From Escherichia coli (GTDB taxonomy: Bacteria > Pseudomonadota > Gammaproteobacteria > Enterobacterales > Enterobacteriaceae), in assembly GCF_024298765.1 (NCBI RefSeq), contig NZ_CP101210.1: a stretch of DNA of 64,000 nt, one strand, 5' to 3'. Within the stretch, counting starts at the first letter, position 1; the number at the start of each line of letters is the position of its first letter. The position numbers and the translations under genes are program-made. This document shows positions 1 to 16,704 of this stretch, piece by piece. The notes under the pieces are model-generated. The model was not told the DNA's origin, made no database searches, and saw only the letters and a program-made list of their open reading frames with translations.

Positions 1-92
1 GTGCAACATCGTGGTCCAACATACGTAAACCAGTATCGACAGGCAGTGTAAGGGTAAGGTGCTGGTGTTGCGCTCCTTAATAAGGAGAGCGG

Positions 93-182
93 ATGGACAC
101 GCTGACACAAAAGTTAACCGTGCTCATTGCTGTACTGGAGCTATTAGTGGCTCTGTTACGGTTGATTGATTTGTTGAAGTAA
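93..182 (+). CDS. 29-aa hydrophobic type I toxin-like peptide (ZorO/ZorP-like), copy 1
   Basis: ATG at 93 preceded by RBS AGGAGAG; translation MDTLTQKLTVLIAVLELLVALLRLIDLLK; single predicted TM helix; long leader; hairpin 206-225 downstream. Family assignment from memory of the EHEC zor-orz locus. Confidence 0.6.
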   Translation: MDTLTQKLTVLIAVLELLVALLRLIDLLK

Positions 183-205
183 CGGGCAAATTGAAACGCA
201 TCTAA

Positions 206-235
206 GGGGGAAAACCGCTTCCCCCTTTAATAAAA
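206..235 (+). terminator. Stem-loop (GGGGGAA/TTCCCCC) with short T-tract after peptide copy 1
   Basis: Perfect 7-bp inverted repeat 206-212/219-225, loop AACCGC, followed by TTTAATAAAA. Confidence 0.5.
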
Positions 236-379
236 TGATTACTGTTTTTATTAATTCATCATATAACTCATTTTTATTTATAAATTCATCGATTTTATAT
301 TCAACGCACCATTTGACCGGGATGTGAATATTTATGGTGGGCTATTGGCAAAAAATATCTGGAAAGTAGATCGCAGAAA

Positions 380-462
380 ATAAAAAAACCTGCTGGTGAG
401 GCAGGTTCTTTTATTTACTACTTTGATGTTAAGTTACTGATAGTGCAACATGGCATCTCAAC
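380..462 (-). ncRNA. Candidate antisense antitoxin sRNA (Orz-like), about 83 nt
   Basis: Minus-strand sigma70-like promoter (TTGCAA-17-TATAAT; -10 at plus coordinates 469-474), and an intrinsic terminator (hairpin 388-407 then T-run on the minus strand). The 5' part is complementary, with mismatches, to the motif GTGCAACATGGC...CTCAAC.AACG found in both peptide leaders (1-25, 607-631). Confidence 0.5.
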
Positions 463-468
463 GAACGA

Positions 469-519
469 ATTATAACCACCTCTGGACAGTGTTGCAATTA
501 AGATAATGAGATTTATAAT
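469..519. promoter_or_regulatory. Back-to-back sigma70-like promoters sharing one palindromic -35 (TTGCAA at 492-497)
   Basis: Plus strand: TTGCAA(492-497)-16 nt-TATAAT(514-519), predicted TSS near 527, giving a ~174-nt leader before the ATG at 701. Minus strand: same TTGCAA, 17-nt spacer, TATAAT (469-474 read on the minus strand). Confidence 0.5.
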
Positions 520-700
520 CCTGACTGTTGGGAAGTTGCGCCGGATCGAACCCATTTCAAGTCCTGGCTACCGGACGGGTGGTGCCGCAGGTAGTGCTCT
601 GATCCGGAGTGCAACATGGCGACTCAACAAACGTAAACCAGTATCGACAGGCAGTGTAAGGGTAAGGTGCTGGTGTTGCGCTCCTTAATAAGGAGAGCGG

Positions 701-790
701 ATGGACACGCTGACACAAAAGTTAACCGTGCTCATTGCCGTACTGGAGCTATTAGTGTCTCTGTTACGGTTGATTGATTTGTTGAAGTAA
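701..790 (+). CDS. 29-aa hydrophobic type I toxin-like peptide (ZorO/ZorP-like), copy 2
   Basis: Translation MDTLTQKLTVLIAVLELLVSLLRLIDLLK, one A>S change versus copy 1; same RBS and the same downstream hairpin at 814-833. The listed 60-aa ORF 506-688 is a frame artefact of the leader. Confidence 0.6.
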   Translation: MDTLTQKLTVLIAVLELLVSLLRLIDLLK

Positions 791-813
791 TGGGCAAATT
801 GAAACGCAACTAA

Positions 814-836
814 GGGGGAAAACCGCTTCCCCCTTT
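814..836 (+). terminator. Stem-loop after peptide copy 2
   Basis: Same GGGGGAA/TTCCCCC hairpin as at 206-225. Confidence 0.5.
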
Positions 837-842
837 AATAAA

Positions 843-1163
843 CTAATATTCTATTAGTTGGTTGAATATATTCTGTAGTTCACGATTAAAAATTGCTATT
901 ACAGTTTCAGGTGATTCACCTCGTAATTTCCGCTCATCAATACACTCATCTCTTATATAAATCAACGCATCATTTATTAGCGGGTCAGCATCTTCTCGAT
1001 CACGTTGATGAAATGTTGGACGTAGCCGGAATCGCTCCAGTCGATAGACGGAACCTGTAAATAATTCAGAGCATTTATGGATCTCAAGTCTGAAGGAAAA
1101 CGGATCTTCAGGTACAGGGACCTCATAATCGTAAATAGCAACCAGCTCTTTTTGCACGATCAT
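843..1163 (-). CDS. yehK: YehK, small uncharacterised protein
   Basis: 106-aa ORF; recalled as YehK from its position downstream of yehI and its length. Confidence 0.7.
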   Translation of the reverse strand: MIVQKELVAIYDYEVPVPEDPFSFRLEIHKCSELFTGSVYRLERFRLRPTFHQRDREDADPLINDALIYIRDECIDERKLRGESPETVIAIFNRELQNIFNQLIEY

Positions 1164-1223: not shown

Positions 1224-4200
1224 TTAATGGAAAATGACGTCAGGTGCGCTTAACGCCTCACTCAAATCAAACACATCAAGTTCGGCAAAAGTGACGGATT
1301 TATTGTCACTGTACACTCGAAGAGAACGGAAGCTCATTAGCGCTTTGCTATCAACATTGTAGTGGTTAAAACCGGGTGAAAACTTAAGGACCAGCCGGTA
1401 CTCACCCAGGTCATAGACAAATGCGTCCTCATAGCCTGACTCCCAGCCTTTGTATCGCATTCCCATAAGTTGCCCAACGGTAGCAGATTTACCTTCCCAG
1501 CGATTCAAACTATTACTGGCTGACTCGTCAGGCGTGAGCAGCACCGTGCGCCGTGTCAACTGGCGAAGTGGCGGTATAATTTCGTAATCGGCAAAAAGCT
1601 GGGCAAATTCACTGCGCATTTCTGCTGTCATTTCTAACGGGTGGGCAATGCCAATCAGAGCATCCGCAGGCAGGTCAATTGGCTCATCCTGCGCATTGCA
1701 GAACTCCCCCTCTGCGGCCACACGAAAGGCGTTGAGTAAACGACGCGGTTCATTTGCCGGATACACGCCCCATATGAATCGCTGGGTAACCAGGCGGGTA
1801 AAGGGATGATTAACAAACAGAGTATGAAAATCTGCCAGCGACCAGCGTCGGGTGGTACGTAGGGCAGCTTCAAGACGCGGGAGCAGGTTTTTGCTCACCT
1901 GAGTAGCATCTTTTTTTAGCCCTTTTAGTCGGGCCAGTGCCTCGGGCGCTTTCAGTTGATCGTCATCGGCGCGCAACCGGGGAACGCTTTTCTGGCGAAC
2001 GTTTTGCTGATCAAAGATAACCGGGTTGAGGTTTTCATCGAAGCGAACGGTAAACTGCCGGGGACCAAAATCAAAACTCAACGCCTGCGGATCATCAAGG
2101 CCCAGGGTTGGGACTAATCTGTCCGCTAGCTCTTCCTGGCTTAGCCCGCGATTTTCTGCGACCACCTGAAGAAATTCCGCCGCGTTATCACGTAAGGGGC
2201 GGGATTTAGCCCGTTGCGATATATGATGCAGCTGTATCAGCGCCATATCATTATTCATCAGGGTAAGGATGTTCAGGCCGCTGACAGCACGGGCAGATTT
2301 GCCTTCTTGTGGCCAGGCGAGGATCTGTGTCGTCAGATCCCGTGCCGTGCTTTCGTCACCAAAGAGACTTAACGCCAGAAATGCCCAGTTGTCTTTTGCG
2401 GGGGCACCAGCTTGTTGCCACGCAGTGAAGAGATCCCAGGCAAAAGCTGCCAGCGTTTGTGGCTGGCAGAACGTTTTCAGTTGTTCCAGCCCGCTATAAA
2501 AACGTCCCCCCTGGGTAAAGCGCAGCATTTCGCCGATAATTTCCAGAGCGTCACCGGTAACAGGCTGATTATTAGTGATAAGTCGAGGCCTGGACCACAT
2601 TGCCGGATGCCAGAAATCAGGGGCTTTTGGAATGCGTGCCGGGTAAATGTCCATTGGACCCTGTTTAAGCAACTGCTCCAGGGCAGACCATACATCTGTA
2701 CGCTGCCAGCGGTTTGCCACGGTTTGTAGCAATTCGCCATGTCCCTGTTCGTACAGTAAACGCAGGGCAAGTAATGCGGCTTCGCTATTATCGCTGGGTT
2801 TGGTAAAGACAAGAGGGATAAGTGCACTAGCCGTATGTTCCGGCCATTGTAAAATCCACTGGCGAGCCAGATCACGCTGCGCCGCGAAACGTCGCCAGAC
2901 GCGGGCAACAGGCAGCGCCAGTTCTGTTGCGCCAAAATTTAAAATTAACGGAAATGTTTCTTTTGGACGATGTGAAAAAGCCAACAGCAGACCTGGTAGC
3001 GCATCCAATCCGAGGATACTGAGAAAATAGTCCTCACCCGCGAACAGATGCTTTTTCTCAATGATACGCAGCCAGAAGGTCAAAGCCATCTCACGCGGCA
3101 ACTGTGCCAATAAATACAGGTTCCAGACACTCTTTTCCGGACGATAACGTGAGAAGTTGTCATTTTCCCATATGTTAATTAACGCTTCTATGTGACCGCT
3201 GCGGAGCGCCTGTTCTGCTAATTGTGCTTGCGGGGAGTTCCAGCCATTCAGGATCTCTTCAACCCGCCCCTGGTAGTAATGCCACTGAACAATGAGTGAA
3301 TTGCGTGCAGCATCCAGTTTTCCGGGGAGTATATAATTCAGAAACAGCCATACATCATCCCCAAAACCCAGTTCCTGTAATACAACTCGTCCACTTTTTT
3401 GTTCCATGCGTTCCGCAAGAGATTCCGTGCTGAAATAACGGGCAGACTCAGTGGCGGCAAGCCTCTCTTGTTCGCCTGGTTGCCAGTAAATTTGCGGAGT
3501 TAATTCGAGCGGTGCCAAATCAAGACGTGGAGCTGTCATTTTTTTCTTACTACGCCACGGTGGTGAAACGAGCATTTCAGGCAGACTGCTGTTATCGGTG
3601 CTATCAATAACCGGTTTTGGCGGTGCCGATAAATAACTATTCAGCACTGCCCTGGCTTGAGTACTTAACCACGGCATCACCCTTTCTGCTAGTTGTGGCT
3701 GCGATGCTATCAGCGTTTGTAACAGCGTACGCCAGTATTCATCGCGTGCTTTTTGCTGTGCAGGCAGCTTTTTGTCTTCGATGATTGGATAACCTGGGCG
3801 GGCTGGTGGTTCTTTTAACGCCAGCAGTTCTGCCAGTGCGGCGAGTGTCGCATGGGGGAAGTTTTTACTGTATTTAGCCACACGTTGCAGGCTGGGTTTG
3901 TTTTTATCAGCAACTAACAGCAAGGTGCGGATGACTTGCGGATGGTTAATTTGTACCAGCAGACTGCCGCAATCTTCTTTATGGGCATATATCGCGAGGC
4001 GCGGAACGGCTGCCAGTCCTTGTTCGCGCAAAAGGGCGGCGCAGGCCGCGTAGCCGAAGTGGTTTTCATGCGACATGTAGCTGGCTTCTCGATCGCTAAA
4101 TACGTCCAGGCCCCAGCATCGTTCGAGTTTTTTTACCGCCGTATTATCAGTAGCAATGACCTTTAACCACTCCTTTGAATGGAGACTTGACCGGGAGCTT

Positions 4201-4856
4201 TCAAGACTGGCGAGTTCATTGGCTATTTCAGGTTTTTCCGGGAGGAGTAGTGCAATAAAAGGACGGCGAATTTTGGGTATTCCTGGCAGTGCGGCAATGA
4301 GTTTGTCGGCGCAACGCTGCCAGCTGCTTTCCTCTGCCAGAGAGAGATGCTTACGCAGTCGGAGATCGAATTCGTTATAGGTTTCTGAGCGATAACCATA
4401 GCCATAATCCTCGTCCTGATACTGCAATGTCACTAGCAGAGGATCACTCTCATAACATCGTGTAATAAACTGGCGTGCAATCACCACCTCAGTCGCATAT
4501 TCCAGCCCCTCTTGTTGGACGATTTCGTCGAGCAACTGTTGGCTGTCCTTTTGCGCGATACAGGCTAGCACCGCCATTGTGCGGGCCGGGACTGAGGGTT
4601 TGTGTTCGCCGATCAAGTTGATGGCCTGCGTAATGGCGGACTGCCACTCCAGTGAAAAATTTTCATAACGCCAGACAATGTTTTTTTTCTTCTCAGCTTT
4701 TTGTAGCAATTCATCACCCAGTGTCTGAATGATGCTTTCAGTGATAACAGGCACCGGTTCGCCCGGCCAATTGCGATGGCTGAGTGGTGTTTTGCCTTTT
4801 TTATATTTCAGTTCCAGTTGAGCGTTATCCGCCAGCCACGGTAATTCCTTGTCCAT
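1224..4856 (-). CDS. yehI: YehI, large DUF4132-family protein (1210 aa), paralog of MolR without the N-terminal WGR region
   Basis: 1210-aa ORF; long blocks near-identical to the upstream ORF (e.g. FDLRLRKHLSLAEES...LIALLLPEKPEIA); 9-bp gap to molR suggests an operon. Confidence 0.85.
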   Translation of the reverse strand: MDKELPWLADNAQLELKYKKGKTPLSHRNWPGEPVPVITESIIQTLGDELLQKAEKKKNIVWRYENFSLEWQSAITQAINLIGEHKPSVPARTMAVLACIAQKDSQQLLDEIVQQEGLEYATEVVIARQFITRCYESDPLLVTLQYQDEDYGYGYRSETYNEFDLRLRKHLSLAEESSWQRCADKLIAALPGIPKIRRPFIALLLPEKPEIANELASLESSRSSLHSKEWLKVIATDNTAVKKLERCWGLDVFSDREASYMSHENHFGYAACAALLREQGLAAVPRLAIYAHKEDCGSLLVQINHPQVIRTLLLVADKNKPSLQRVAKYSKNFPHATLAALAELLALKEPPARPGYPIIEDKKLPAQQKARDEYWRTLLQTLIASQPQLAERVMPWLSTQARAVLNSYLSAPPKPVIDSTDNSSLPEMLVSPPWRSKKKMTAPRLDLAPLELTPQIYWQPGEQERLAATESARYFSTESLAERMEQKSGRVVLQELGFGDDVWLFLNYILPGKLDAARNSLIVQWHYYQGRVEEILNGWNSPQAQLAEQALRSGHIEALINIWENDNFSRYRPEKSVWNLYLLAQLPREMALTFWLRIIEKKHLFAGEDYFLSILGLDALPGLLLAFSHRPKETFPLILNFGATELALPVARVWRRFAAQRDLARQWILQWPEHTASALIPLVFTKPSDNSEAALLALRLLYEQGHGELLQTVANRWQRTDVWSALEQLLKQGPMDIYPARIPKAPDFWHPAMWSRPRLITNNQPVTGDALEIIGEMLRFTQGGRFYSGLEQLKTFCQPQTLAAFAWDLFTAWQQAGAPAKDNWAFLALSLFGDESTARDLTTQILAWPQEGKSARAVSGLNILTLMNNDMALIQLHHISQRAKSRPLRDNAAEFLQVVAENRGLSQEELADRLVPTLGLDDPQALSFDFGPRQFTVRFDENLNPVIFDQQNVRQKSVPRLRADDDQLKAPEALARLKGLKKDATQVSKNLLPRLEAALRTTRRWSLADFHTLFVNHPFTRLVTQRFIWGVYPANEPRRLLNAFRVAAEGEFCNAQDEPIDLPADALIGIAHPLEMTAEMRSEFAQLFADYEIIPPLRQLTRRTVLLTPDESASNSLNRWEGKSATVGQLMGMRYKGWESGYEDAFVYDLGEYRLVLKFSPGFNHYNVDSKALMSFRSLRVYSDNKSVTFAELDVFDLSEALSAPDVIFH

Positions 4857-4865
4857 GCTCTTTCC

Positions 4866-7800
4866 TTATTCAAACAGGGCTTCAATATCGTTAATTAGCT
4901 CGCTGGCGGTGATGGCATCGAGTACGGAGAACTGCGCTTCCTGTGTTGAATTACTCCCCCAGCCATAGCTTTCTGCTTTGCCTTCCCATAGCCACAGCTT
5001 GCTTAAGAGCTGCTCGGCACTCAGTTCGGCTGGCGACATGCCTACCGCAAAACCTTCGTCGATTTCCATGATTAACGACCAGCGACCGAGAGGTTTGATC
5101 ATCCAGCCGATCCAGCCTCCATCCTGCGGGGTGCCCTTTATCCAGCCTTTATTCGCCAGCCCCATGACCCGACCGCTCGGGCATTTTCTGCCTGCCCAGC
5201 GGGTCAGTTCGCTGGCGTTGCGCTCGGCTTCTGTCAGGGCGTAACTGTTACGGTCAAGCTGACGGAACGGTGGTAGCAGTTCGTAGTCGGCAAAAAGCTG
5301 ACCAAAGGCGGCAGCATCCGTCGGTGATATTTCCAGAACGTGAGGAATGCCAACAGAGATATCGCCTTCCGGCAGGGTGAAAAGATCATCGTCAGCGGTG
5401 CTGTAGCTGTTATCTTCCGCCACGCGGAAGCACGTCAGTAGCTGGTTTTCGGTGCTATAAACGCCCCAAATCAGACGGCGGGTTAAGTGGCGTACCAGTG
5501 GATGTTCAACCAGGAAGAGCTGAAAGTTTTCTGGCGACCAGCGGCGACGCAGGCACATGGCGGATTCCAGCCTTGCTACCTGCTGGGCGGCGACGGTACG
5601 CGCATCTTTTTTCAGCAGTTTGTAGCGGTTAACAGCATCGTTCGCCTGTGATTCATCATCGCTTTTGTTTGGTTTGGGCAGGTCTTTCAGACGGCTGCCG
5701 GAAGCGTCACGCACAAACGGTTTTAAGGTTTCATCAAAGCTGACGGTGAACTGGCGTGGGCCGAAATCCAGCAGCAACGAACCGTTATCATCCAGACCGA
5801 GATCTGGTGCTAACCGATCTTCAAGCTCCGCCACTGTCAGTTCGCGACTTTCGGCAATGTCGGCAATTTTCTCTTTCGCCCGCTCCTGTAATGCTTTGAA
5901 TTTCAGTTTCTGGGCAATGCCGTTAAGCTGCATCAGGGCTATATCACTACCGATAGCGGCGAGAATATCCAACCCAACGGTGGCGCGTTTATGCTGAGAT
6001 TCGCCAGGCCAGGCGCGGATTAATGGCGTCAGTTTGCGGGCGGTGTCATCGTTACCGAGAACGCCTAACGCAGTGAACGCCCAACTCTCTCTCGACGGCG
6101 CGCCAGCGGTCTGCCAGGCGGTAAACAGATCCCAGGCAAATTCAGCCAGTGAGTCGGCGGTACAGGCATCTTTCACCTGCAATAATCCCGGATACAGAGC
6201 CTCTTCCTGAGGGAAGCGGAGCATTTCGCCGAGGTGGAGGAGGGCGCTATCTGGCAGTGATTGGGCGTTTGCTTTTAATACCGGGCGCGTCCAGAGCGAT
6301 GGCTGATAAAAGGCCGGAAGAGTGGGGATTTTTGTCGGGTGATTATCTAAGGGATCGAGCGCAAGCAGAGCGTTCACCGCGTCGGTTACTTCCGGCTGGT
6401 TATAACGCCGGGCGATTTCTTGCAGTAATGGCTGATGACCGTTTTCGCTAAGCATACGCAAGGCAGCGCGGGCGTTATCCTGAGCTTCATCGGCTTTGCC
6501 GAGCGCAGCAGGCAGCAGGCCGGTAATGGCGTGTTCCGGGTATTTCAGCAGCCAGCTACGGGCGTCTTGTCGTAGAGTTTTGAGTTTGTTGAAGGCGCGG
6601 GCGACGGCAGGTGCCAGCTCACTCGCTGCGAAGTAATTCGTGATGGGCAAGGCTTCCTGTGGATAGCGTGCAAGTGAGTTTACTAACCCAGGTAACCCTT
6701 TGAGTCCAAAATGTAACATGGCGTATTCGGTATCGGTATGTGGAGATAGGGTAAGGGCATTCCATGCTTTTACTGCTTTCTCCAGCGGCAATGTTGTCAA
6801 AATCCCCAACTGCCAATAATGCCCGGTAGGTGAATGAAACACCTTAAATTCACTTAGTAAGGTTGAATAATCTTCATTTAGCCATGCCTCAACTACCGCT
6901 TCGGGAGCTTTAATATATGTACCAGCGATCCGTCGTTGAAAACCCATTCTTGCCAACAGGTTGGCAGTACTTTCTTCATGGCTAACCGTGATGTGTTTTG
7001 AATACCAGATATATTTCGCCAAAAGTTGATTACTGATTTCTTCTGTCAGATAACAGATTGGCTCAATGCCTAATGGCGCTAACTCCAGCACCGGAATCGT
7101 CGCTTTTTTCTTTTTCGAAAGCCATGGTGGGGAGACTACTATGGCAGGCAGTAGATCGGCGCAGGCATGGTTTGAGGGCTGTGTCAGTTGTTGCTGGCAT
7201 GATTTCAGTACGGCAACTGCGGGTGTCGAGAGCCAGGGAATGACCTGTTCTGCCAGTGCTGGTTGTGAGATAAGCATTGTCATTAGCATAATGCGCCAAC
7301 TGTTCTCTTCTTTTTGCCCAAGAAGTTCCGTCAGTGCCGCCATTGCTGCATGTGGGAACGCAGCAATGGCTTTCGTCATCCGATCGTGACAGCGTTTAGT
7401 TTGCCCGGCTACACGTATAAGCAGTGTCAATGCGAACGGATGATTGATATGACGCAACACATCGGCGCAGTAGTCACTTGCGGCATAGGGAGCAAATCGG
7501 GGCAGGGCTGCAACACCTTGCTCCTGTAATACGGTGGCTGACCATATCGCACCACAATAGTAATCATCAAAAATGGCATATGGCTCGTGATATTTTTCTA
7601 ATGAGGCAAGAATGTGCTCATCAGTCGCCACTATTTTTAACCACTCAAGCGAGGGTAATTTTTTTTGCCCCAGTAGACGCTGGGCAATTTCATGTGCAAT
7701 TTCTGGTTTTTCGGGTAATAACAAAGCAATTAATGGTTGCCGCCATTCTGGAATATGTGGAATTGCGGCAATAAGTTTTTGTGTACATTTTTGCCAGAGA

Positions 7801-8660
7801 GACTCTTCCGCCAGTGATAAATGTTTACGTAGGCGTAATTCAAATCTGGAATATTGCTCCAAGTAGTCAGGTGCAATGCCAGACGGCAGAATAATAATGA
7901 CATTATTCGCATAATCCCATTTAATATCAATCTGTTGAAGGTGTATTATTACATCAGTAGCATATTCCAGACCGCCCTCCTGGACGATCTGATCCATAAC
8001 ATCCTCACGCACTTTATATCTTGTGCATTTCATTTCAAGTGCCGTGAGTACAGCCATTACTGGTGATGGTAGCTGTGTTGTTTTCAGGCCGTCGATCTGA
8101 CTGATCGCCTGGGCGACGGTGTTTTGCCATTCTAAAGAACAGGCGCTGAAGTCAAATGTGGCTGTTTTATTATCCCGTTGCGACACACTACAGGCTAAGC
8201 GACGTAATTGGGTCAATTTGTCTGCTTGCTGAACAGGAACTCCGGGAAAGCGGCGATGACTTAACGTGGTGTGTACAACTTCGGGCGGAAAAACGACAGC
8301 AATATCTTTTGCCAGCCACGGTAAAACAGCATCTGTATTTTTGTCAGGCGCACGGGTTTCTGCTACGAAAGAGGGGTGTTCCTGAATAATGGTGAATAAG
8401 TCCGCTACCTTGAGAGAGCCCGTTACCGTTTGGGAAGGTTGCAAAGAATTATCCTTCGCTTGCTCCACATACCCCTTCTTCACCTTCTCCGCAATCAGCT
8501 TAAGCTCCGCTTTTGCCACTGCCGCAGCATCTGAAAAACTTTTTATCTGGCTTTGCCCTTTGGTGCCAACTTTTCCCCAACTGATATGCAACTCGTTTCC
8601 CTGTTGCTCAACTGCCCAGAATTTATGTGATTTTTCGTCCTGATAGATAAAGTGTCTCAT
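4866..8660 (-). CDS. molR: MolR (YehH), intact 1264-aa protein with N-terminal WGR-like domain
   Basis: N-terminus MRHFIYQDEKSHKFWAVEQQGNELHISWGKVGTKGQ fits the WGR-domain pattern; remainder paralogous to YehI. Reading frame uninterrupted here. Confidence 0.85.
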   Translation of the reverse strand: MRHFIYQDEKSHKFWAVEQQGNELHISWGKVGTKGQSQIKSFSDAAAVAKAELKLIAEKVKKGYVEQAKDNSLQPSQTVTGSLKVADLFTIIQEHPSFVAETRAPDKNTDAVLPWLAKDIAVVFPPEVVHTTLSHRRFPGVPVQQADKLTQLRRLACSVSQRDNKTATFDFSACSLEWQNTVAQAISQIDGLKTTQLPSPVMAVLTALEMKCTRYKVREDVMDQIVQEGGLEYATDVIIHLQQIDIKWDYANNVIIILPSGIAPDYLEQYSRFELRLRKHLSLAEESLWQKCTQKLIAAIPHIPEWRQPLIALLLPEKPEIAHEIAQRLLGQKKLPSLEWLKIVATDEHILASLEKYHEPYAIFDDYYCGAIWSATVLQEQGVAALPRFAPYAASDYCADVLRHINHPFALTLLIRVAGQTKRCHDRMTKAIAAFPHAAMAALTELLGQKEENSWRIMLMTMLISQPALAEQVIPWLSTPAVAVLKSCQQQLTQPSNHACADLLPAIVVSPPWLSKKKKATIPVLELAPLGIEPICYLTEEISNQLLAKYIWYSKHITVSHEESTANLLARMGFQRRIAGTYIKAPEAVVEAWLNEDYSTLLSEFKVFHSPTGHYWQLGILTTLPLEKAVKAWNALTLSPHTDTEYAMLHFGLKGLPGLVNSLARYPQEALPITNYFAASELAPAVARAFNKLKTLRQDARSWLLKYPEHAITGLLPAALGKADEAQDNARAALRMLSENGHQPLLQEIARRYNQPEVTDAVNALLALDPLDNHPTKIPTLPAFYQPSLWTRPVLKANAQSLPDSALLHLGEMLRFPQEEALYPGLLQVKDACTADSLAEFAWDLFTAWQTAGAPSRESWAFTALGVLGNDDTARKLTPLIRAWPGESQHKRATVGLDILAAIGSDIALMQLNGIAQKLKFKALQERAKEKIADIAESRELTVAELEDRLAPDLGLDDNGSLLLDFGPRQFTVSFDETLKPFVRDASGSRLKDLPKPNKSDDESQANDAVNRYKLLKKDARTVAAQQVARLESAMCLRRRWSPENFQLFLVEHPLVRHLTRRLIWGVYSTENQLLTCFRVAEDNSYSTADDDLFTLPEGDISVGIPHVLEISPTDAAAFGQLFADYELLPPFRQLDRNSYALTEAERNASELTRWAGRKCPSGRVMGLANKGWIKGTPQDGGWIGWMIKPLGRWSLIMEIDEGFAVGMSPAELSAEQLLSKLWLWEGKAESYGWGSNSTQEAQFSVLDAITASELINDIEALFE

Positions 8661-8761
8661 TCTGCATCCCTGTGATTTTATCCAGTTGAATGCAGATGCT
8701 ACCAGTATTTATGCGGGTTAGAGAGAGACAAAATCGCAAGAAAACAACTTTAGGAATTTAT

Positions 8762-8792
8762 AAAGAAAAGGCGCTGTCGATGCAGCGCCTTA
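8762..8792 (-). terminator. Intrinsic terminator downstream of metG
   Basis: Hairpin AAGGCGCTG...CAGCGCCTT at 8766-8791 followed on the minus strand by a T-rich run. Confidence 0.6.
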
Positions 8793-8800
8793 AAGGGGGA

Positions 8801-10834
8801 TTATTTCACCTGATGGCCTGGTTTAGCACCAGCATCCGGGCTTAACAGGAAGATATCTTTCCCGCCAGGACCAGCAGCCATTACCATGCCTTCGGAGATA
8901 CCAAAGCGCATTTTACGCGGTGCCAGGTTGGCCACCATAATGGTGTGACGCCCGATCAGTGCCTGCGGATCCGGGTAGGCAGAACGAATACCGGAGAAGA
9001 CATTGCGTTTTTCACCGCCGAGATCCAGTGTCAGGCGCAGCAGTTTGTCAGAACCTTCAACAAACTCTGCGTTTTCGATCAGCGCCACGCGCAGGTCAAC
9101 TTTTGCGAAGTCGTCAAAGGTGATGGTTTCCTGAATCGGATCATCTGCCAGTGGGCCAGTAACTGGCGCGGCAGCTGCTTTCACTTCTTCTTTAGACGCT
9201 TCCACCAGTGCTTCAACCTGCTTCATATCGATGCGGTTATACAGCGCTTTGAACGGATTCACTTTGTGGCCCAGCAGCGGTTGCTGGATACCATCCCAGG
9301 TCAGTTCTGTATTGAGGAATGCTTCTGCGCGCTCGGTCAGTTTCGGCAGTACCGGCTTCAGGTAAGTCATCAGCACGCGGAACAGGTTTATGCCCATTGA
9401 GCAAATTGCCTGCAGGTCGGCATCGCGGCCTTCCTGTTTTGCCACCACCCACGGAGCCTGCTCGTCGACATAGCGGTTAGCCAGATCAGCCAGCGCCATG
9501 ATTTCGCGCACTGCTTTACCAAATTCGCGGCTTTCCCACGCTTCACCAATCACTTCAGCGGCATCAGTGAAGGTTTTGTACAACTGCGGGTCAGCCAATT
9601 CGCTTGCCAGCACGCCGTCAAAACGCTTGTTGATAAAGCCCGCATTACGAGAGGCCAGGTTAACCACTTTGTTCACGATATCGGCATTCACACGCTGAAC
9701 GAAATCCTCCAGGTTGAGATCGATATCATCAATGCGCGAAGAGAGTTTCGCAGTGTAGTAGTAACGCAGGCTGTCAGCGTCAAAATGATTCAGCCAGGTG
9801 CTGGCTTTAATAAAGGTGCCGCGAGACTTGGACATCTTTGCGCCGTTCACCGTCACATAGCCATGAACAAACAGGTTGGTCGGCTTGCGGAAGTTGCTGC
9901 CTTCCAGCATGGCAGGCCAGAACAGGCTGTGGAAGTAAACAATATCTTTACCGATGAAGTGGTACAGCTCGGCGGTGGAGTCTTTCTTCCAGTATTCATC
10001 GAAGCTTACGCTGTCGCCGCGCTTGTCGCACAGATTCTTGAAAGAACCCATGTAGCCAATCGGTGCGTCCAGCCAGACGTAGAAATATTTGCCCGGCGCG
10101 TTCGGAATTTCAAAACCAAAGTATGGCGCGTCGCGGGAGATATCCCACTGTTGCAGGCCGGATTCAAACCACTCCTGCATTTTATTTGCCACCTGCTCCT
10201 GCAACGCACCGCTGCGGGTCCATGCCTGCAACATTTCGCTGAAAGAGGGCAGATCAAAGAAGAAGTGTTCAGAATCACGCATTACCGGCGTAGCGCCAGA
10301 AACCACCGATTTCGGCTCGATCAATTCAGTCGGGCTGTAGGTCGCGCCGCAGACTTCGCAGTTATCGCCGTATTGATCCGGGGATTTACATTTCGGGCAG
10401 GTGCCTTTCACAAAACGGTCCGGCAGGAACATGCCTTTTTCCGGATCGTACAGCTGAGAGATGGTGCGGTTTTTAATAAAACCGTTCTCTTTCAGGCGAG
10501 AGTAGATAAGTTCTGACAACTGGCGGTTCTCTTCGCTGTGCGTCGAGTGATAGTTGTCATAGCTGATGTTAAAGCCTGCGAAATCAGTCTGATGCTCCTG
10601 ACTCATTTCGCCAATCATCTGCTCCGGGGTGATACCAAGCTGCTGAGCTTTCAGCATGATCGGTGTACCGTGGGCATCGTCGGCGCAGATGAAGTTGACC
10701 TCGTGGCCGCGCATTCGCTGGTAACGGACCCAGACATCAGCCTGGATGTGCTCCAGCATATGGCCGAGGTGGATTGAGCCGTTAGCGTACGGCAGTGCGC
10801 ACGTCACCAGAATTTTCTTCGCGACTTGAGTCAT
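8801..10834 (-). CDS. metG: Methionine--tRNA ligase
   Basis: ORF translation contains [27 protein letters not shown] (HIGH-type motif) and a C-terminal tRNA-binding region; start trimmed to the ATG at 10834, giving 677 aa. Confidence 0.95.
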
Positions 10835-10965
10835 AGTAGGCATTACTTCTTAATAGTGAAAAGGGGTTAGATAGTACCAAATGGGAAAATGTTAAGTAAG
10901 TACTTCTCTATATTCTTCAGGTAAACTATCAGCTGATGGTTTATCTATACAAAAAAGGAGTCGGG

Positions 10966-12075
10966 ATGAACGAACAATCCCAGGCCAAATCACCAGAAGC
11001 CTTGCGCGCAATGGTCGCCGGGACACTGGCCAATTTTCAGCACCCAACCCTGAAGCATAACCTCACCACGCTGAAAGCGTTGCACCATGTCGCCTGGATG
11101 GACGACACGTTGCATGTGGAACTGGTTATGCCATTCGTCTGGCATAGCGCGTTTGAAGAGTTAAAAGAGCAATGTAGCGCCGAACTGCTGCGTATCACCG
11201 GGGCGAAAGCTATCGACTGGAAACTGTCGCACAATATCGCCACCTTAAAACGCGTGAAGAATCAGCCGGGTATTAATGGTGTGAAGAACATCATTGCGGT
11301 CAGTTCCGGTAAAGGCGGCGTGGGTAAATCCTCCACGGCGGTAAACCTGGCGCTGGCACTGGCGGCGGAAGGGGCGAAAGTCGGCATTCTGGACGCCGAT
11401 ATCTACGGCCCATCAATTCCCACCATGCTGGGCGCAGAAAATCAGCGTCCAACTTCGCCGGACGGTACCCATATGGCACCGATTATGTCTCATGGCCTGG
11501 CAACCAATTCAATTGGTTATCTGGTCACTGACGACAATGCGATGGTGTGGCGTGGACCGATGGCGAGCAAGGCGTTAATGCAGATGTTGCAGGAAACCTT
11601 GTGGCCGGATCTCGACTATCTGGTGCTTGATATGCCGCCAGGCACCGGTGACATTCAATTGACGCTGGCGCAAAACATTCCAGTAACTGGTGCAGTCGTG
11701 GTCACCACCCCGCAGGACATCGCGTTGATCGATGCGAAAAAAGGCATTGTGATGTTCGAGAAAGTCGAGGTTCCGGTGCTTGGTATTGTCGAGAACATGA
11801 GTGTGCATATTTGCAGTAACTGTGGTCACCATGAACCGATTTTCGGTACCGGTGGTGCAGAGAAACTGGCTGAAAAATACCACACACAGCTGCTGGGGCA
11901 GATGCCGTTACACATTTCCTTACGTGAGGATCTCGATAAAGGCACGCCAACGGTTATCAGCCGTCCGGAGAGCGAATTTACCGCTATCTACCGCCAGCTG
12001 GCTGACCGCGTTGCAGCTCAGCTCTACTGGCAGGGTGAAGTCATTCCAGGCGAGATTTCCTTCCGCGCGGTCTAA
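10966..12075 (+). CDS. apbC: Fe-S cluster carrier ATPase ApbC/Mrp
   Basis: P-loop SGKGGVGKS, CxxC motif; start set at MNEQSQ (10966), 369 aa; divergent from metG. Confidence 0.9.
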   Translation: MNEQSQAKSPEALRAMVAGTLANFQHPTLKHNLTTLKALHHVAWMDDTLHVELVMPFVWHSAFEELKEQCSAELLRITGAKAIDWKLSHNIATLKRVKNQPGINGVKNIIAVSSGKGGVGKSSTAVNLALALAAEGAKVGILDADIYGPSIPTMLGAENQRPTSPDGTHMAPIMSHGLATNSIGYLVTDDNAMVWRGPMASKALMQMLQETLWPDLDYLVLDMPPGTGDIQLTLAQNIPVTGAVVVTTPQDIALIDAKKGIVMFEKVEVPVLGIVENMSVHICSNCGHHEPIFGTGGAEKLAEKYHTQLLGQMPLHISLREDLDKGTPTVISRPESEFTAIYRQLADRVAAQLYWQGEVIPGEISFRAV

Positions 12076-12337
12076 CGCCTATTAACCATTCTGGTTATTC
12101 TTCATACACCGCAGAGATGTTACATTGATGCGGTGTATTAGTTTTTGCCGCATTAATGAACACTTATTTAATACTGCGAATATTCTGCGGACCTTCGTCC
12201 GAAACTCTACAAAGTCGATTGATCATACAGGCAATGCTTCATTATCATCCTTCGTGGCTGTGTAGTGGATGTACAGCTATAGTTTGTTATGCACTCATTC
12301 TATCCAGGCATAACCTTTACTACAGGGATAACGTTCA

Positions 12338-12619
12338 ATGAATAAGTATTGGCTGTCAGGAATTATTTTTCTTGCCTATGGATTGGCTTCTCCCGCATTC
12401 TCTTCAGAGACTGCCACATTAACGATTAATGGCAGGATCAGTCCCCCAACATGCAGTATGGCTATGGTTAATAGTCAACCACAACAGCATTGTGGTCAGT
12501 TAACGTATAATGTTGACACCCGTCATCAGGTTTCTTCGCCCGTCAAAGGTGTTACGACAGAAGTGGTTGTTGCAGGTAGCGATAGCAAACGTCGAATCGT
12601 GTTAAATCGCTACGATTAA
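12338..12619 (+). CDS. yehE: YehE, small secreted protein upstream of the yeh fimbrial operon
   Basis: 93-aa ORF with N-terminal signal peptide. Confidence 0.7.
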   Translation: MNKYWLSGIIFLAYGLASPAFSSETATLTINGRISPPTCSMAMVNSQPQQHCGQLTYNVDTRHQVSSPVKGVTTEVVVAGSDSKRRIVLNRYD

Positions 12620-12650
12620 TTTGGCAACCTGATTTTAATTGCATTTAGAA

Positions 12651-12690
12651 AGCCGAAATCATTTATATAAATGATTTCGGCTTTTTTATT
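12651..12690 (+). terminator. Intrinsic terminator after yehE
   Basis: 13-bp inverted repeat AGCCGAAATCATT/AATGATTTCGGCT followed by TTTTTT. Confidence 0.7.
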
Positions 12691-12911
12691 GATATCAACA
12701 ATACCATTTACATAAATCTACATTAATTAATAGATGCGATAAATAGTTAATACTCTTAAATATTTGTTGTATTTATATTGCATTGGTTAATTTATTTTAA
12801 ATCAATAAAACAATATGTTTACATTGCGGCAACTTTTTTGATGTGAGAAATTTGTTTCCAAGAGATACAGACTCTTAACAACCAAAAATAAATTTTATTA
12901 AGGAACATATT

Positions 12912-13454
12912 ATGAAACGTTCAATTATTGCTGCCGCTGTCTTTTCTTCTTTTTTTATGAGCGCTGGAGTATTTGCTGCAGACGTTGATACCGGAACATT
13001 AACCATTAAAGGAAATATTGCAGAATCTCCGTGTAAATTCGAAGCGGGTGGTGATTCAGTAAGTATTAATATGCCGACTGTACCAACCACTGTCTTTGAA
13101 GGTAAAGCTAAATATTCTACCTATGATGATGCAGTCGGTGTAACCAGCAGCATGTTAAAAATTAGCTGCCCGAAAGAAGTTGCTGGTGTAAAACTCTCGT
13201 TGATTACCAACGACAAAATAACCGGCAACGATAAGGCGATAGCCAGTAGCAACGATACCGTGGGTTACTATCTCTATTTAGGTGATAACAGCGATGTCCT
13301 GGATGTTTCTGCACCTTTTAATATTGAGAGTTATAAAACAGCGGAAGGTCAATATGCTATTCCGTTTAAAGCAAAATACCTGAAACTAACAGATAACTCA
13401 GTGCAATCAGGTGATGTGTTATCTTCTCTGGTTATGCGTGTGGCGCAGGATTAA
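12912..13454 (+). CDS. yehD: Fimbrial major subunit (chaperone-usher type)
   Basis: 180 aa, signal peptide, fimbrial subunit-like; first gene of yehDCBA. Confidence 0.85.
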   Translation: MKRSIIAAAVFSSFFMSAGVFAADVDTGTLTIKGNIAESPCKFEAGGDSVSINMPTVPTTVFEGKAKYSTYDDAVGVTSSMLKISCPKEVAGVKLSLITNDKITGNDKAIASSNDTVGYYLYLGDNSDVLDVSAPFNIESYKTAEGQYAIPFKAKYLKLTDNSVQSGDVLSSLVMRVAQD

Positions 13455-13488
13455 TAAATAAAATTGCAAGTTTCTCCAGGTAATAAAC

Positions 13489-14208
13489 ATGGCCGCTATC
13501 CCATGGCGGCCTTTTAATTTAAGAGGCATTAAAATGAAAGGATTATTATCTTTACTCATTTTTTCTATGGTCCTTCCTGCACATGCCGGAATTGTTATCT
13601 ACGGGACGCGCATTATTTACCCGGCAGAAAATAAAGAAGTTATGGTGCAGTTGATGAACCAGGGAAATCGTTCTTCGCTGCTGCAGGCGTGGATTGATGA
13701 TGGCGATACGTCGTTACCACCAGAAAAAATTCAGGTTCCTTTCATGTTAACGCCACCAGTTGCAAAAATAGGGGCAAATTCCGGGCAGCAAGTAAAAATC
13801 AAAATTATGCCGAATAAACTGCCCACTAATAAAGAAAGCATTTTTTATCTGAATGTTCTGGATATTCCACCAAATAGTCCAGAACAAGAAGGTAAGAATG
13901 CACTGAAGTTTGCGATGCAAAACAGAATCAAATTGTTTTACCGGCCGGCGGGTATTGCTCCGGTAAATAAAGCGACCTTTAAAAAGTTACTGGTAAATCG
14001 CAGTGGCAATGGATTGGTGATAAAAAATGACTCAGCTAATTGGGTGACGATTTCGGATGTCAAAGCTAATAATGTCAAAGTCAATTATGAAACTATAATG
14101 ATTGCCCCCTTAGAAAGTCAGAGTGTTAATGTCAAAAGTAATAATGCAAATAACTGGTATCTGACCATTATCGATGACCACGGCAACTATATTAGTGACA
14201 AAATTTAA
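13489..14208 (+). CDS. yehC: Periplasmic fimbrial chaperone
   Basis: 239 aa, PapD-like chaperone features (signal peptide, IYGTRIIYP motif). Confidence 0.85.
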   Translation: MAAIPWRPFNLRGIKMKGLLSLLIFSMVLPAHAGIVIYGTRIIYPAENKEVMVQLMNQGNRSSLLQAWIDDGDTSLPPEKIQVPFMLTPPVAKIGANSGQQVKIKIMPNKLPTNKESIFYLNVLDIPPNSPEQEGKNALKFAMQNRIKLFYRPAGIAPVNKATFKKLLVNRSGNGLVIKNDSANWVTISDVKANNVKVNYETIMIAPLESQSVNVKSNNANNWYLTIIDDHGNYISDKI

Positions 14209-14223
14209 TTGCAGGAGCTGCCT

Positions 14224-16704
14224 ATGTTGAGAATGACCCCACTTGCATCAGCAATCGTAGCGTTATTGCTCGGCATTGAAGCTTATGCAGCTGAAGAAAC
14301 CTTTGATACCCATTTTATGATAGGTGGAATGAAAGACCAGCAGGTTGCAAATATTCGTCTTGATGATAATCAACCCTTACCGGGGCAGTATGACATTGAT
14401 ATTTATGTCAATAAGCAATGGCGCGGGAAATATGAGATTATTGTTAAAGACAACCCGCAAGAAACATGTTTATCAAGAGAAGTTATCAAGCGGTTAGGCA
14501 TTAATAGCGATAACTTCGCCAGCGGTAAGCAATGTTTAACATTTGAGCAACTTGTTCAGGGTGGGAGCTATACCTGGGATATCGGGGTTTTTCGTCTCGA
14601 TTTCAGTGTCCCGCAGGCCTGGGTGGAAGAACTGGAAAGTGGCTATGTTCCACCGGAAAACTGGGAGCGGGGTATTAATGCGTTTTATACCTCTTATTAT
14701 GTGAGTCAGTATTACAGTGACTATAAAGCGTCGGGTAATAGTAAGAGTACATATGTACGTTTTAACAGCGGGTTAAATTTACTGGGGTGGCAACTGCATT
14801 CTGATGCCAGTTTCAGTAAAACAAATAACAATCCAGGGGTGTGGAAAAGCAATACCCTGTATCTGGAACGTGGATTTGCCCAACTTCTCGGCACGCTTCG
14901 CGTGGGTGATATGTACACATCAAGCGATATTTTTGATTCTGTTCGCTTCAGAGGTGTGCGGTTGTTTCGTGATATGCAGATGTTGCCTAACTCGAAACAA
15001 AATTTTACGCCACGGGTGCAGGGGATTGCTCAGAGTAACGCGCTGGTAACTATTGAACAGAATGGTTTTGTGGTTTATCAGAAAGAGGTTCCTCCTGGCC
15101 CGTTTGCGATTACAGATTTGCAGTTGGCCGGTGGTGGAGCAGATCTTGATGTCAGCGTGAAAGAGGCGGACGGTTCGGTAACCACCTATCTGGTGCCTTA
15201 TGCAGCGGTGCCAAATATGCTGCAACCCGGCGTGTCGAAATATGATTTTGCGGCGGGTCGTAGCCATATTGAAGGGGCGAGCAAACATAGTGATTTTGTC
15301 CAGGCGGGTTATCAGTATGGTTTTAATAACTTATTGACGTTGTATGGTGGCTCGATGGTTGCGAATAATTATTACGCGTTCACTCTGGGGACTGGCTGGA
15401 ATACACGCATTGGTGCCATTTCCGTCGATGCCACGAAGTCGCATAGTAAACAAGACAACGGCGATGTGTTTGACGGGCAAAGTTATCAAATTGCCTACAA
15501 CAAATTTGTGAGCCAAACGTCGACGCGTTTTGGTCTGGCGGCCTGGCGTTATTCGTCGCGTGATTACCGGACATTTAACGATCACGTTTGGGCAAACAAT
15601 AAAGATAATTATCGCCGTGATGAAAACGATGTCTATGACATTGCCGATTATTACCAGAATGATTTTGGTCGCAAAAATAGCTTTTCCGCCAATATGAGCC
15701 AGTCATTGCCAGAAGGTTGGGGGTCTGTGTCATTAAGTACGTTATGGCGAGATTACTGGGGGCGTAGCGGCAGTAGTAAGGATTATCAGTTGAGTTATTC
15801 CAACAACCTGCGACGGATAAGCTATACCCTCGCGGCAAGCCAGGCTTATGACGAGAATCATCATGAAGAGAAACGTTTTAATATTTTTATATCGATTCCC
15901 TTTGATTGGGGTGATGACGTTTCGACGCCTCGTCGGCAAATATATATGTCTAACTCAACGACGTTTGATGATCAGGGGTTTGCCTCAAATAATACGGGAT
16001 TATCAGGAACAGTAGGGAGTCGGGATCAGTTCAATTATGGTGTCAACCTGAGTCATCAACATCAGGGAAATGAAACGACAGCTGGGGCGAATTTGACCTG
16101 GAACGCGCCGGTGGCAACAGTGAATGGCAGTTATAGTCAGTCGAGTACTTATCGACAGGCTGGAGCCAGTGTTTCAGGGGGCATTGTCGCCTGGTCGGGT
16201 GGCGTTAATCTGGCGAACCGTCTTTCCGAAACGTTTGCTGTGATGAATGCGCCAGGAATTAAAGATGCTTATGTCAATGGGCAAAAATATCGCACAACAA
16301 ACCGTAATGGAGTGGTGGTATACGACGGAATGACACCTTATCGGGAAAATCACCTGATGCTGGATGTGTCGCAAAGCGATAGCGAAGCAGAATTACGTGG
16401 CAACCGGAAAATTGCCGCACCTTATCGCGGCGCGGTTGTACTGGTTAATTTTGATACCGATCAGCGCAAGCCCTGGTTTATAAAAGCGTTAAGAGCGGAT
16501 GGGCAACCATTAATGTTTGGTTATGAAGTCAATGATATCCATGGTCATAATATTGGCGTTGTCGGTCAGGGAAGCCAGTTATTTATTCGCACCAATGAAG
16601 TACCGCCATCGGTTAATGTGGCAATTGATAAGCAACAAGGACTTTCATGCACAATCACCTTCGGTAAAGAGATTGATGAAAGTAGAAATTATATTTGCCA
16701 GTAA
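14224..16704 (+). CDS. yehB: Outer-membrane fimbrial usher
   Basis: Usher-family protein; start set at the ATG at 14224 (RBS AGGAG at 14213-14217) rather than the upstream TTG, giving 826 aa. Confidence 0.9.
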   Translation: MLRMTPLASAIVALLLGIEAYAAEETFDTHFMIGGMKDQQVANIRLDDNQPLPGQYDIDIYVNKQWRGKYEIIVKDNPQETCLSREVIKRLGINSDNFASGKQCLTFEQLVQGGSYTWDIGVFRLDFSVPQAWVEELESGYVPPENWERGINAFYTSYYVSQYYSDYKASGNSKSTYVRFNSGLNLLGWQLHSDASFSKTNNNPGVWKSNTLYLERGFAQLLGTLRVGDMYTSSDIFDSVRFRGVRLFRDMQMLPNSKQNFTPRVQGIAQSNALVTIEQNGFVVYQKEVPPGPFAITDLQLAGGGADLDVSVKEADGSVTTYLVPYAAVPNMLQPGVSKYDFAAGRSHIEGASKHSDFVQAGYQYGFNNLLTLYGGSMVANNYYAFTLGTGWNTRIGAISVDATKSHSKQDNGDVFDGQSYQIAYNKFVSQTSTRFGLAAWRYSSRDYRTFNDHVWANNKDNYRRDENDVYDIADYYQNDFGRKNSFSANMSQSLPEGWGSVSLSTLWRDYWGRSGSSKDYQLSYSNNLRRISYTLAASQAYDENHHEEKRFNIFISIPFDWGDDVSTPRRQIYMSNSTTFDDQGFASNNTGLSGTVGSRDQFNYGVNLSHQHQGNETTAGANLTWNAPVATVNGSYSQSSTYRQAGASVSGGIVAWSGGVNLANRLSETFAVMNAPGIKDAYVNGQKYRTTNRNGVVVYDGMTPYRENHLMLDVSQSDSEAELRGNRKIAAPYRGAVVLVNFDTDQRKPWFIKALRADGQPLMFGYEVNDIHGHNIGVVGQGSQLFIRTNEVPPSVNVAIDKQQGLSCTITFGKEIDESRNYICQ

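Follow-up and report, generated by a model that had tools for sequence, protein, structure and literature searches.

MolR and YehI of Escherichia coli as possible damage-induced adaptors of a five-component MoxR-vWA system

The adjacent genes molR and yehI lie in a 64,000-nucleotide stretch of Escherichia coli contig NZ_CP101210.1, the whole of which we call the window. They encode two large paralogous proteins with the domain DUF4132 near the C terminus, and a comparison of loci across bacteria places them in one system with the products of yehL, yehM, yehP, and yehQ. The reading we favor, and to which we give somewhat less than an even chance, is that MolR and YehI are interchangeable adaptor or sensor subunits, nucleic acid binding and induced by DNA damage, that would feed a five-component remodeling motor centered on a MoxR ATPase and a von Willebrand factor A (vWA) protein. 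One part of this, that MolR and YehI belong to the YehLMPQ system, is on the evidence of gene neighborhoods much more secure than the composite model. Coordinates of the features are collected in Table 1.

The neighborhoods were obtained by scanning one genome per species with an alignment of 8 sequences, giving 74 loci, whose open reading frames (ORFs) were then searched with the E. coli proteins. Below, the DUF4132 gene is written D, and the homologs of yehL, yehM, yehP, and yehQ are written L, M, P, and Q. The loci come from Enterobacterales, Burkholderiales, Xanthomonadales, Neisseriales, a deltaproteobacterium, and a Mycolicibacterium. In 51 of the 74, D has all of L, M, P, and Q directly beside it, on the same strand and tightly packed, so that the check for co-conservation with yehLMPQ, suggested in a preliminary description of this DNA, comes out strongly positive. 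The gene order is D-L-M-P-Q, or L-M-P-Q-D in Burkholderia. Another 7 loci have a partial set and are mostly cut at contig ends, and 16 are without L, M, P, and Q, 13 of these being extra copies in Massilia or Duganella and 3 being on very short contigs. The five-gene operon is also annotated on plasmids of Bacillus mycoides, Streptomyces, and Iodobacter, and it is found in metagenomic contigs, one of which has the order L-D-M-P-Q. No other neighbor family recurs at the operon, and its flanks are unrelated between taxa. The system spans Proteobacteria, Actinobacteria, and Firmicutes, the DUF4132 gene also occurs in Deinococcus, and the DUF4132 family amounts to 8721 clusters at 50% identity. 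In the source strain of the window, yehLMPQ follow molR-yehI-yehK, 1.2 kb past yehK, beyond a terminator and outside the window. Because yehLMPQ are co-conserved with it, the DUF4132 module, which had been put forward as a module of two genes, has to be redrawn as five components, consisting of the DUF4132 protein or proteins, in variable copy number, together with YehL, YehM, YehP, and YehQ.

Some single loci depart from the common pattern. The mobilisable 77-kb plasmid pl1 of Iodobacter fluviatilis (L087 20699-24356) has the operon flanked by insertion sequences (IS) and directly followed by a type I restriction-modification system with a PDDEXK nuclease. A metagenome contig (L089 6883-12213) encodes a 1776-amino-acid variant in which HisKA/HATPase_c stands N-terminal to WGR-DUF4132, with a response-regulator gene before it and a MoxR gene after it; this could be a real fusion or a run-through of gene calling. 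In Massilia frigida (L007/L044, gene 10001-13792), one WGR-DUF4132 gene stands alone, LMPQ being absent from its vicinity, and has around it type VI secretion system (T6SS) and Rhs toxin genes (PAAR-like, DUF2169, Tox-GHH2, RHS) as well as immunity genes of the SUKH (SMI1_KNR4) and SUFU types. Rhs genes recur near the Burkholderia operons.

The four partners can be named by their domains. YehL is a MoxR AAA+ protein, with an AAA_5 match at E = 6e-34 and its best PDB sequence matches to the AAA modules of midasin at E = 1e-9; there is in addition a faint match to Pfam bpMoxR. YehM is DUF5682, YehP is a vWA protein of 378 amino acids with a metal ion-dependent adhesion site (MIDAS), its homologs being annotated VWA_CoxE/VWA_2, and YehQ has a double SWIM zinc finger. 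The Walker A sequence GEPGTAKS of YehL, the MIDAS sequence DQSGS (DxSxS) of YehP, and both SWIM motifs of YehQ (CxC..CxH) are at least 90% conserved, and from these motifs the motor parts YehL, YehP, and YehQ look functional. The NCBIfam and PADLOC libraries yielded nothing informative on the proteins. YehL is the type member of a named MoxR subfamily with no function assigned (the classification of Snider and Houry, cited in PMC3893208). It pairs with a vWA protein as other MoxR subfamilies do, but that classification covers only the ATPase, and the link to WGR-DUF4132 proteins and their expansion is not in the searchable papers. A dynein-type AAA_5 ATPase, a MIDAS domain, and a large, mainly helical partner are also what make up Midasin/Rea1 and the chelatases (BchI/D/H, CobS/T/N); the yeh parts differ from these in being separate polypeptides, with a large subunit unrelated to CobN/BchH and with no ribosome-assembly or tetrapyrrole context.

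YehM (L001 7059-9338, minus strand, outside the window) contains in its N-terminal third the highly conserved motifs GIRHHSP and VVCGGWHAP, which resemble the paired GxxH motifs of TraB/Tiki-type hydrolases. Aligned by hhalign with E. coli YbaP, the N-terminal profile has a probability of 0.2% and E = 0.31, which is not significant, with the VV.G..H motif aligned. NCBIfam has no match for YehM at E <= 10.

The domain content of the D proteins is what would make them the sensing side of the system. The Pfam scan finds WGR (PF05406) in MolR at amino acids 6-69 with E = 3.5e-17 and DUF4132 (PF13569) at amino acids 988-1173 with E = 2.6e-52, over model positions 1-179 of 179, and YehI has a full-length DUF4132 match as well and no WGR. 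These are the only significant matches in Pfam-A scans of the two proteins, the others listed having independent E-values of at least 0.17. The family WGR profile matches, by sequence, the WGR domain of PDB 2ra8 (E = 1.7e-25) and that of PARP3 (E = 1e-3). The preliminary description had proposed the WGR domain, and profile searches and structure prediction bear it out. AlphaFold2 models of MolR were built on family alignments as amino acids 1-780 and amino acids 770-1264, with predicted local distance difference test (pLDDT) scores of 83 and 91.8. They show the WGR domain, a disordered linker at amino acids 69-109, a long alpha-solenoid with a few hairpins, and then the alpha/beta DUF4132 with a beta-rich tail. 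The N terminus is predicted to have the WGR fold, a beta-sheet plus a helix, with the W-G-R motif in the form W28-G29-K30. No solved structure significantly resembles the C-terminal module, for which Foldseek has a best E of 0.14 and the sequence profile search against PDB is empty.

Conservation along the protein, taken as mean pairwise identity across 99 full-length homologs, is bimodal, with conserved ends and a variable middle solenoid. It is 62% in the WGR region, 34% in the N-terminal solenoid, 41% in the middle region, 64% in the C-terminal HEAT part, 62% in DUF4132 (MolR amino acids 956-1173), and 43.5% in the C-terminal tail (MolR amino acids 1174-1264); many polar residues of the C-terminal module are invariant, and its loop with D1001/D1002 is nearly so. 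The WGR domain is the one by which PARP1/2/3 detect DNA breaks. MolR differs from them in having no PARP catalytic, helical regulatory, or zinc-finger domain (Pfam scans return neither a catalytic nor a regulatory PARP domain), and its proposed output would be the AAA+/vWA motor rather than ADP-ribosylation. Nor did the domain searches turn up anything with an enzymatic or effector role in MolR, YehI, or YehP.

The first molR mutant showed a molybdate-utilization phenotype (Lee 1990, as cited in PMC8533742), and some records carry the label "MolR family transcriptional regulator." Neither Pfam nor NCBIfam finds a helix-turn-helix (HTH) or other DNA-binding regulator domain that would go with this label, Pfam also shows no molybdenum-related domain, and the neighbors are metG and yeh genes. 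The label as a molybdate regulator is not supported, in agreement with what had been said of the name at the start.

In BLASTP, MolR and YehI align with 698 bits, E = 0, and 449 of 1187 positions identical (38%). Global identity is 41%, and YehI matches MolR from MolR residue 110 onward at 38-41%. On these sequence comparisons the paralogy is beyond doubt. The longest identical run is 13 amino acids, LRLRKHLSLAEES, the best window of 40 amino acids has 30 identical, and the longest exact match between the genes is 14 nucleotides. With identity and runs of this size the duplication is old, and the "extended near-identical blocks" first reported for the pair were an overstatement. Recent gene conversion between the genes is ruled out by the shortness of the longest exact DNA match. 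Both ORFs are intact, open, co-oriented, and 9 nucleotides apart, just as first described, and so is the contrast with K-12, where MG1655 has at the molR position yehF, a WGR fragment of 274 amino acids, and the pseudogene yehH. The window is 100% identical to E. coli 2014C-4587, in which the two genes are annotated as DUF4132 protein and yehI.

The D gene is the only duplicated component of the operon. There are 2-3 D copies in Escherichia and Klebsiella, and in Massilia arrays of up to about 8 ORFs plus solo copies, while the LMPQ set is always single. WGR is present in 79 of 100 full-length DUF4132 copies, those without it being extra tandem paralogs; single-copy operons almost always have the WGR-bearing form. 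Of 5426 complete E. coli genomes, 1644 (30%) have a third paralog, copy A, which is located between metG and molR. It bears WGR, is 47% identical to MolR, and has alleles that are 87-88% identical in DNA between lineages (up to 12-13% different). Three copies are also found in outgroups, namely E. whittamii, other Escherichia species, K. oxytoca, and K. spallanzanii. Compared with a three-copy E. coli strain, the window molR has 91.5% amino acid identity to copy B, but its first 90 nucleotides are 94% identical to copy A vs 87% to copy B, and it becomes B-like from nucleotide 180. K-12 yehF has this chimeric 5' end in common with it, and the two-gene state of the window therefore arose by recombinational deletion between A and B within the WGR-coding region. 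On this comparison, the two-copy state of the window is derived, a third paralog having been lost.

The locus is at a fixed core position in E. coli, between metG and yehR in 5421 of 5426 genomes, and in about 86% of complete genomes at least 80% of the two-gene region is still a single stretch. A full-length homolog search with MolR matched Escherichia sequences only, and these sort into E. coli allele classes that differ by 9-12% in amino acids. Intact alleles of molR and yehI have a ratio of nonsynonymous to synonymous substitution rates (dN/dS) of 0.18-0.32, against 0.01-0.03 for metG, with dN about ten-fold that of metG; such a ratio over 1200 codons indicates purifying selection on both genes. 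The idea that high nucleotide divergence is special to molR proved only partly true. Synonymous divergence is similar from metG to yehQ, with dS at 0.14-0.20 in metG and yehLMPQ, hence high in the neighbors too, and it is the raised dN that sets molR and yehI apart.

Evidence for damage control begins at the molR promoter. The LexA box there occurs as an exact match only once in the window, against a chance expectation of 0. In Escherichia sp. (L018), Klebsiella oxytoca (L014), and K. grimontii (L015), with 0.005 expected per locus, the same box stands 6-7 nucleotides ahead of the first DUF4132 gene. In Table 1 of PMC6590174, molR appears among the LexA-regulated genes, under "known SOS box." In that respect MolR is like the other E. 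coli SOS genes with no function (ydjM, yebG, ybfE, dinD, etc.), and the box is present here; it differs in being by far the largest protein listed and in being part of a multi-component ATPase system. From the boxes found, SOS control seems confined to Escherichia and Klebsiella. The DdrO/IrrE regulon of Deinococcus radiodurans includes DRA0166 (DUF4132) and DR2173 (WGR), and mitomycin C raises the level of both proteins (PMC8533742). Since searches upstream of the operon in other lineages found no LexA-type motif and Deinococcus uses DdrO/IrrE independently, damage control has been recruited at least twice and is not universal. In K-12, BglJ-RcsB is a further, direct activator of the molR promoter, and H-NS does not repress it (PMC3950696).

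The mechanism that we propose would run as follows. DNA damage leads to cleavage of LexA, and molR-yehI-yehK would be de-repressed. The PARP-type WGR of MolR may then dock on DNA ends, nicks, or other nucleic acid structure, with a client protein or nucleoprotein held by the variable solenoid. The MIDAS site of YehP would capture the conserved module formed by HEAT and DUF4132, and the YehL ring would spend ATP to remodel or extract the bound complex, as in Midasin, CbbQ-CbbO, and the chelatases. YehI, which has no WGR, would serve that motor as a second kind of adaptor, for another client or another localization. A broader version, which we consider doubtful, would make this a pan-bacterial machine for surveillance of nucleic acid or chromatin, in which expandable arrays of PARP-like WGR sensors with differing solenoids serve one MoxR-vWA-DUF5682-SWIM motor that is switched by damage, through LexA in enterobacteria and DdrO in Deinococcus, and acts either in immunity against invading DNA or as an extractor of lesion-trapped proteins.

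Several observations weigh against this proposal. The papers found report no physical interaction, DNA binding, or phenotype for these proteins, and we know of no repair defect of K-12. No nuclease, ligase, or other repair enzyme is present in the system, and a tandem expansion of sensor-like proteins is more typical of conflict systems than of repair. LexA-type boxes upstream of the operon were found only in Escherichia and Klebsiella, and none with the beta-proteobacterial, Xanthomonas, Geobacter, or Gram-positive motifs. Inactivation is frequent: molR is split in K-12, an O157-like strain has lost both copy A and molR to breaks in the frame, and other strains have a broken yehL or yehM. The E. 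coli D genes appear to be transcribed apart from yehLMPQ, with a terminator and the zor-orz locus in between, and yehLM are silenced by H-NS, being de-repressed in an hns/stpA mutant (PMC3686432).

The alternative that survives best is that this is an anti-phage or anti-plasmid conflict system, in which the WGR-solenoid-DUF4132 proteins would be diversifying sensors of invader nucleic acid or proteins, the MoxR-vWA pair the switch, as has been suggested for MoxR-vWA ternary systems, and SOS control a tie to prophage induction or invading DNA. We think it a possible explanation, if an unlikely one. The closest comparison is to the MoxR-vWA ternary conflict systems of Kaur et al. 2020 (PMC7159879), which also combine MoxR AAA+ and vWA genes in one operon with a large third component, that component having an all-alpha middle that varies, with an alpha+beta domain at the C terminus that is conserved, and occurring in multiple paralogous versions per genome. 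The tandem paralog arrays, variable center, and conserved C-terminal module of the D proteins match the logic of VMAP in those systems, and the faint bpMoxR match of YehL points the same way. The third component here is WGR-solenoid-DUF4132, however, and not VMAP, iSTAND, FtsH, or a beta-propeller, as judged by Pfam, whose library includes Kaur-derived families such as bpMoxR. The yeh system further differs in having two more fixed components, the DUF5682 and SWIM proteins, in a YehP vWA protein with neither effector domains nor a propeller, and in duplicating only the third component rather than whole systems; WGR, SWIM, DUF4132, and YehL are not mentioned in PMC7159879.

Population data speak on both sides of a conflict role. 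The raised dN of molR and yehI, the divergent allele classes and copy A alleles, and the polymorphism in presence or absence and in pseudogenes would fit an arms race, as would the unrelated flanks of the operon, the restriction-modification system that adjoins the Iodobacter plasmid copy, and the toxin and immunity genes around the solo Massilia copy. On the other hand, dN/dS is well below 1 gene-wide, YehL is extremely conserved, which is unusual for an arms-race component, and the E. coli locus holds its core position. None of the 5027 PADLOC models (PADLOC-DB 2.0) matches MolR, YehI, YehK, YehL, YehM, YehP, YehQ, or YehR. There is no recognizable effector or toxin domain, YehP being a bare vWA protein, no homolog in INPHARED phage genomes, and only 27 plasmid records, mostly megaplasmids or mislabelled chromosomes. 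The preliminary description had seen in the gene pair a pattern of stress or defense modules. The stress half of this gains from the LexA box and the SOS listing, and the defense half is left without a PADLOC match or phage homologs and with few plasmid copies.

High PHROGs scores for every yeh protein were considered as phage evidence and rejected, as the profiles are near-identical to the E. coli proteins and INPHARED has no homolog. The entries phrog_20839, 36602, 30700, 33984, 31592, 29006, and 36295 are near-identical to E. coli YehI, MolR/YehM fragments, YehP, YehQ, and YehK, and the fragments among them (a 426-amino-acid WGR; a YehM split into 509+243 amino acids) match pseudogene fragments of O157-like strains. 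The likely source is chromosomal DNA in a mis-delimited prophage, which is a caveat for users of PHROGs.

Another reading, which we regard as improbable, is that the system is a chaperone for assembly or cofactor insertion like CoxDEF, NorQD, CbbQO, and the chelatases, the DUF4132 proteins serving as maturation scaffolds, possibly of molybdoenzymes. The characterized MoxR-vWA pairs are indeed maturation factors (PMC3893208; PMC7159879). The sizes of the AAA+ (about 360 amino acids), vWA (about 380), and large (about 1250) subunits resemble those of chelatases, the sole NCBIfam match of YehP is a cobaltochelatase model at E = 5e-4, and the phenotype of the original molR mutant would fit. But E. 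coli has its actual molybdate regulator in ModE. Beside the operon there is no conserved gene for a client enzyme, and Pfam and PDB profile searches with MolR and YehI found no homology to CobN/BchH (Mg-chelatase H), nor was any cofactor-binding domain found. WGR and SWIM point to nucleic acid and not to metal centers, control by SOS and by the radiation/desiccation response (RDR) is not what would be expected for cofactor insertion, and the molybdenum genes of Deinococcus are not co-regulated (PMC8533742).

It is likewise improbable that the locus is an eroding, functionless remnant in E. coli, of which the window would be a lineage not yet decayed: pseudogenes in K-12, O157-like, and other strains, insertions of IS1 and of TnMB1860 (PMC9334617), deletion of the region without harm in the reduced-genome strain DGF-298 (PMC10652928), and the use of yehI as a neutral integration site in engineering work, judging from titles, would suggest it, against which stand the large share of genomes that keep the region in one piece, continued purifying selection at a dN/dS of 0.2-0.3, a LexA box conserved between genera, and the retained catalytic and metal-binding motifs of YehL, YehP, and YehQ.

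Table 1. Positions of the features discussed, in the window unless a locus is named.
Feature	Position	Strand	Description
LexA (SOS) box	8668..8687	minus	AACTGGATAAAATCACAGGG, CTG-N10-CAG with A/T-rich spacer, 7 nucleotides upstream of the molR ATG
metG-molR intergenic region	8661..8767	minus	holds molR promoter predicted from sequence
Intrinsic terminator of upstream metG	8768..8791	minus	9-bp stem with 6 GC pairs, T-run
molR	4866..8660	minus	intact ORF, 1264 amino acids; WGR, alpha-solenoid, DUF4132; tandem copy B
WGR domain of MolR	8454..8645	minus	amino acids 6-69; motif W28-G29-K30 (WGR in most homologs)
Alpha-helical solenoid of MolR	5796..8333	minus	amino acids ~110-955; the family's variable part is its first two thirds
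C-terminal alpha/beta module of MolR	4869..5699	minus	DUF4132 (amino acids 988-1173) and beta-rich tail (amino acids 1174-1264)
Spacer molR/yehI	4857..4865	minus	9 nucleotides, TAA-GGAAAGAGC-ATG; holds Shine-Dalgarno-like AGGA ribosome-binding site
yehI	1224..4856	minus	intact ORF, 1210 amino acids; WGR-less paralog; tandem copy C
DUF4132 of YehI	1443-1997	minus	amino acids 954-1138; PF13569, E = 3.1e-45
yehK	843..1163	minus	ORF of 106 amino acids, 60 nucleotides downstream of yehI; annotated yehK
Terminator-like hairpin after yehK	812..835	minus	10-bp stem AAGGGGGAAGCGGTTTTCCCCCTT; parts DUF4132 genes from yehLMPQ in E. coli
Copy A, example	L006 19303-23100	minus	E. coli NMBU_W05E18, between metG and molR, 1265 amino acids

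Downstream of yehI, yehK is probably the last gene of a molR-yehI-yehK transcript, as its position suggests. It is found only in Escherichia loci, and NCBIfam and PADLOC contain no family match for it outside its own orthologs. The spacer between yehK and yehL (window 1-842; L001 10438-11619) is made of two tandem units of about 610 bp, each with an Rfam match to the OrzO-P antitoxin small RNA (100 and 92 bits), one of them at window 382-455 on the minus strand. These units make up the zorO-orzO / zorP-orzP type I toxin-antitoxin locus described in PMC2887945, of which K-12, missing about 880 bp of the spacer, keeps only the remnant nearest yehL. Elsewhere in the window, at ~12000-14500, yehE and the first part of the yehDCBA fimbrial operon have a G+C content of only 36-40%, between flanks of about 50%.

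The genes, the domains, the SOS membership, and the YehL subfamily are already on record. Three points are in no searchable paper: that the five components form one system, that the DUF4132 proteins are the part of it that multiplies and varies, and that damage regulation is convergent. molR has been on the E. coli SOS gene list since 2000 with no function and a misleading name, and as it is a pseudogene in laboratory K-12 it has, probably for this reason, never been studied. For experiments, the strain to use is a natural isolate whose locus is intact, for example the source strain of the window, rather than K-12. With the reading that we favor, a pair that includes a "y-gene" becomes a concrete hypothesis open to test, in which a MoxR-vWA motor is coupled with a PARP-type WGR sensor. 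Were it to hold, the bacterial DNA-damage response would gain a new branch, or immunity a new class built on expandable arrays of sensors.

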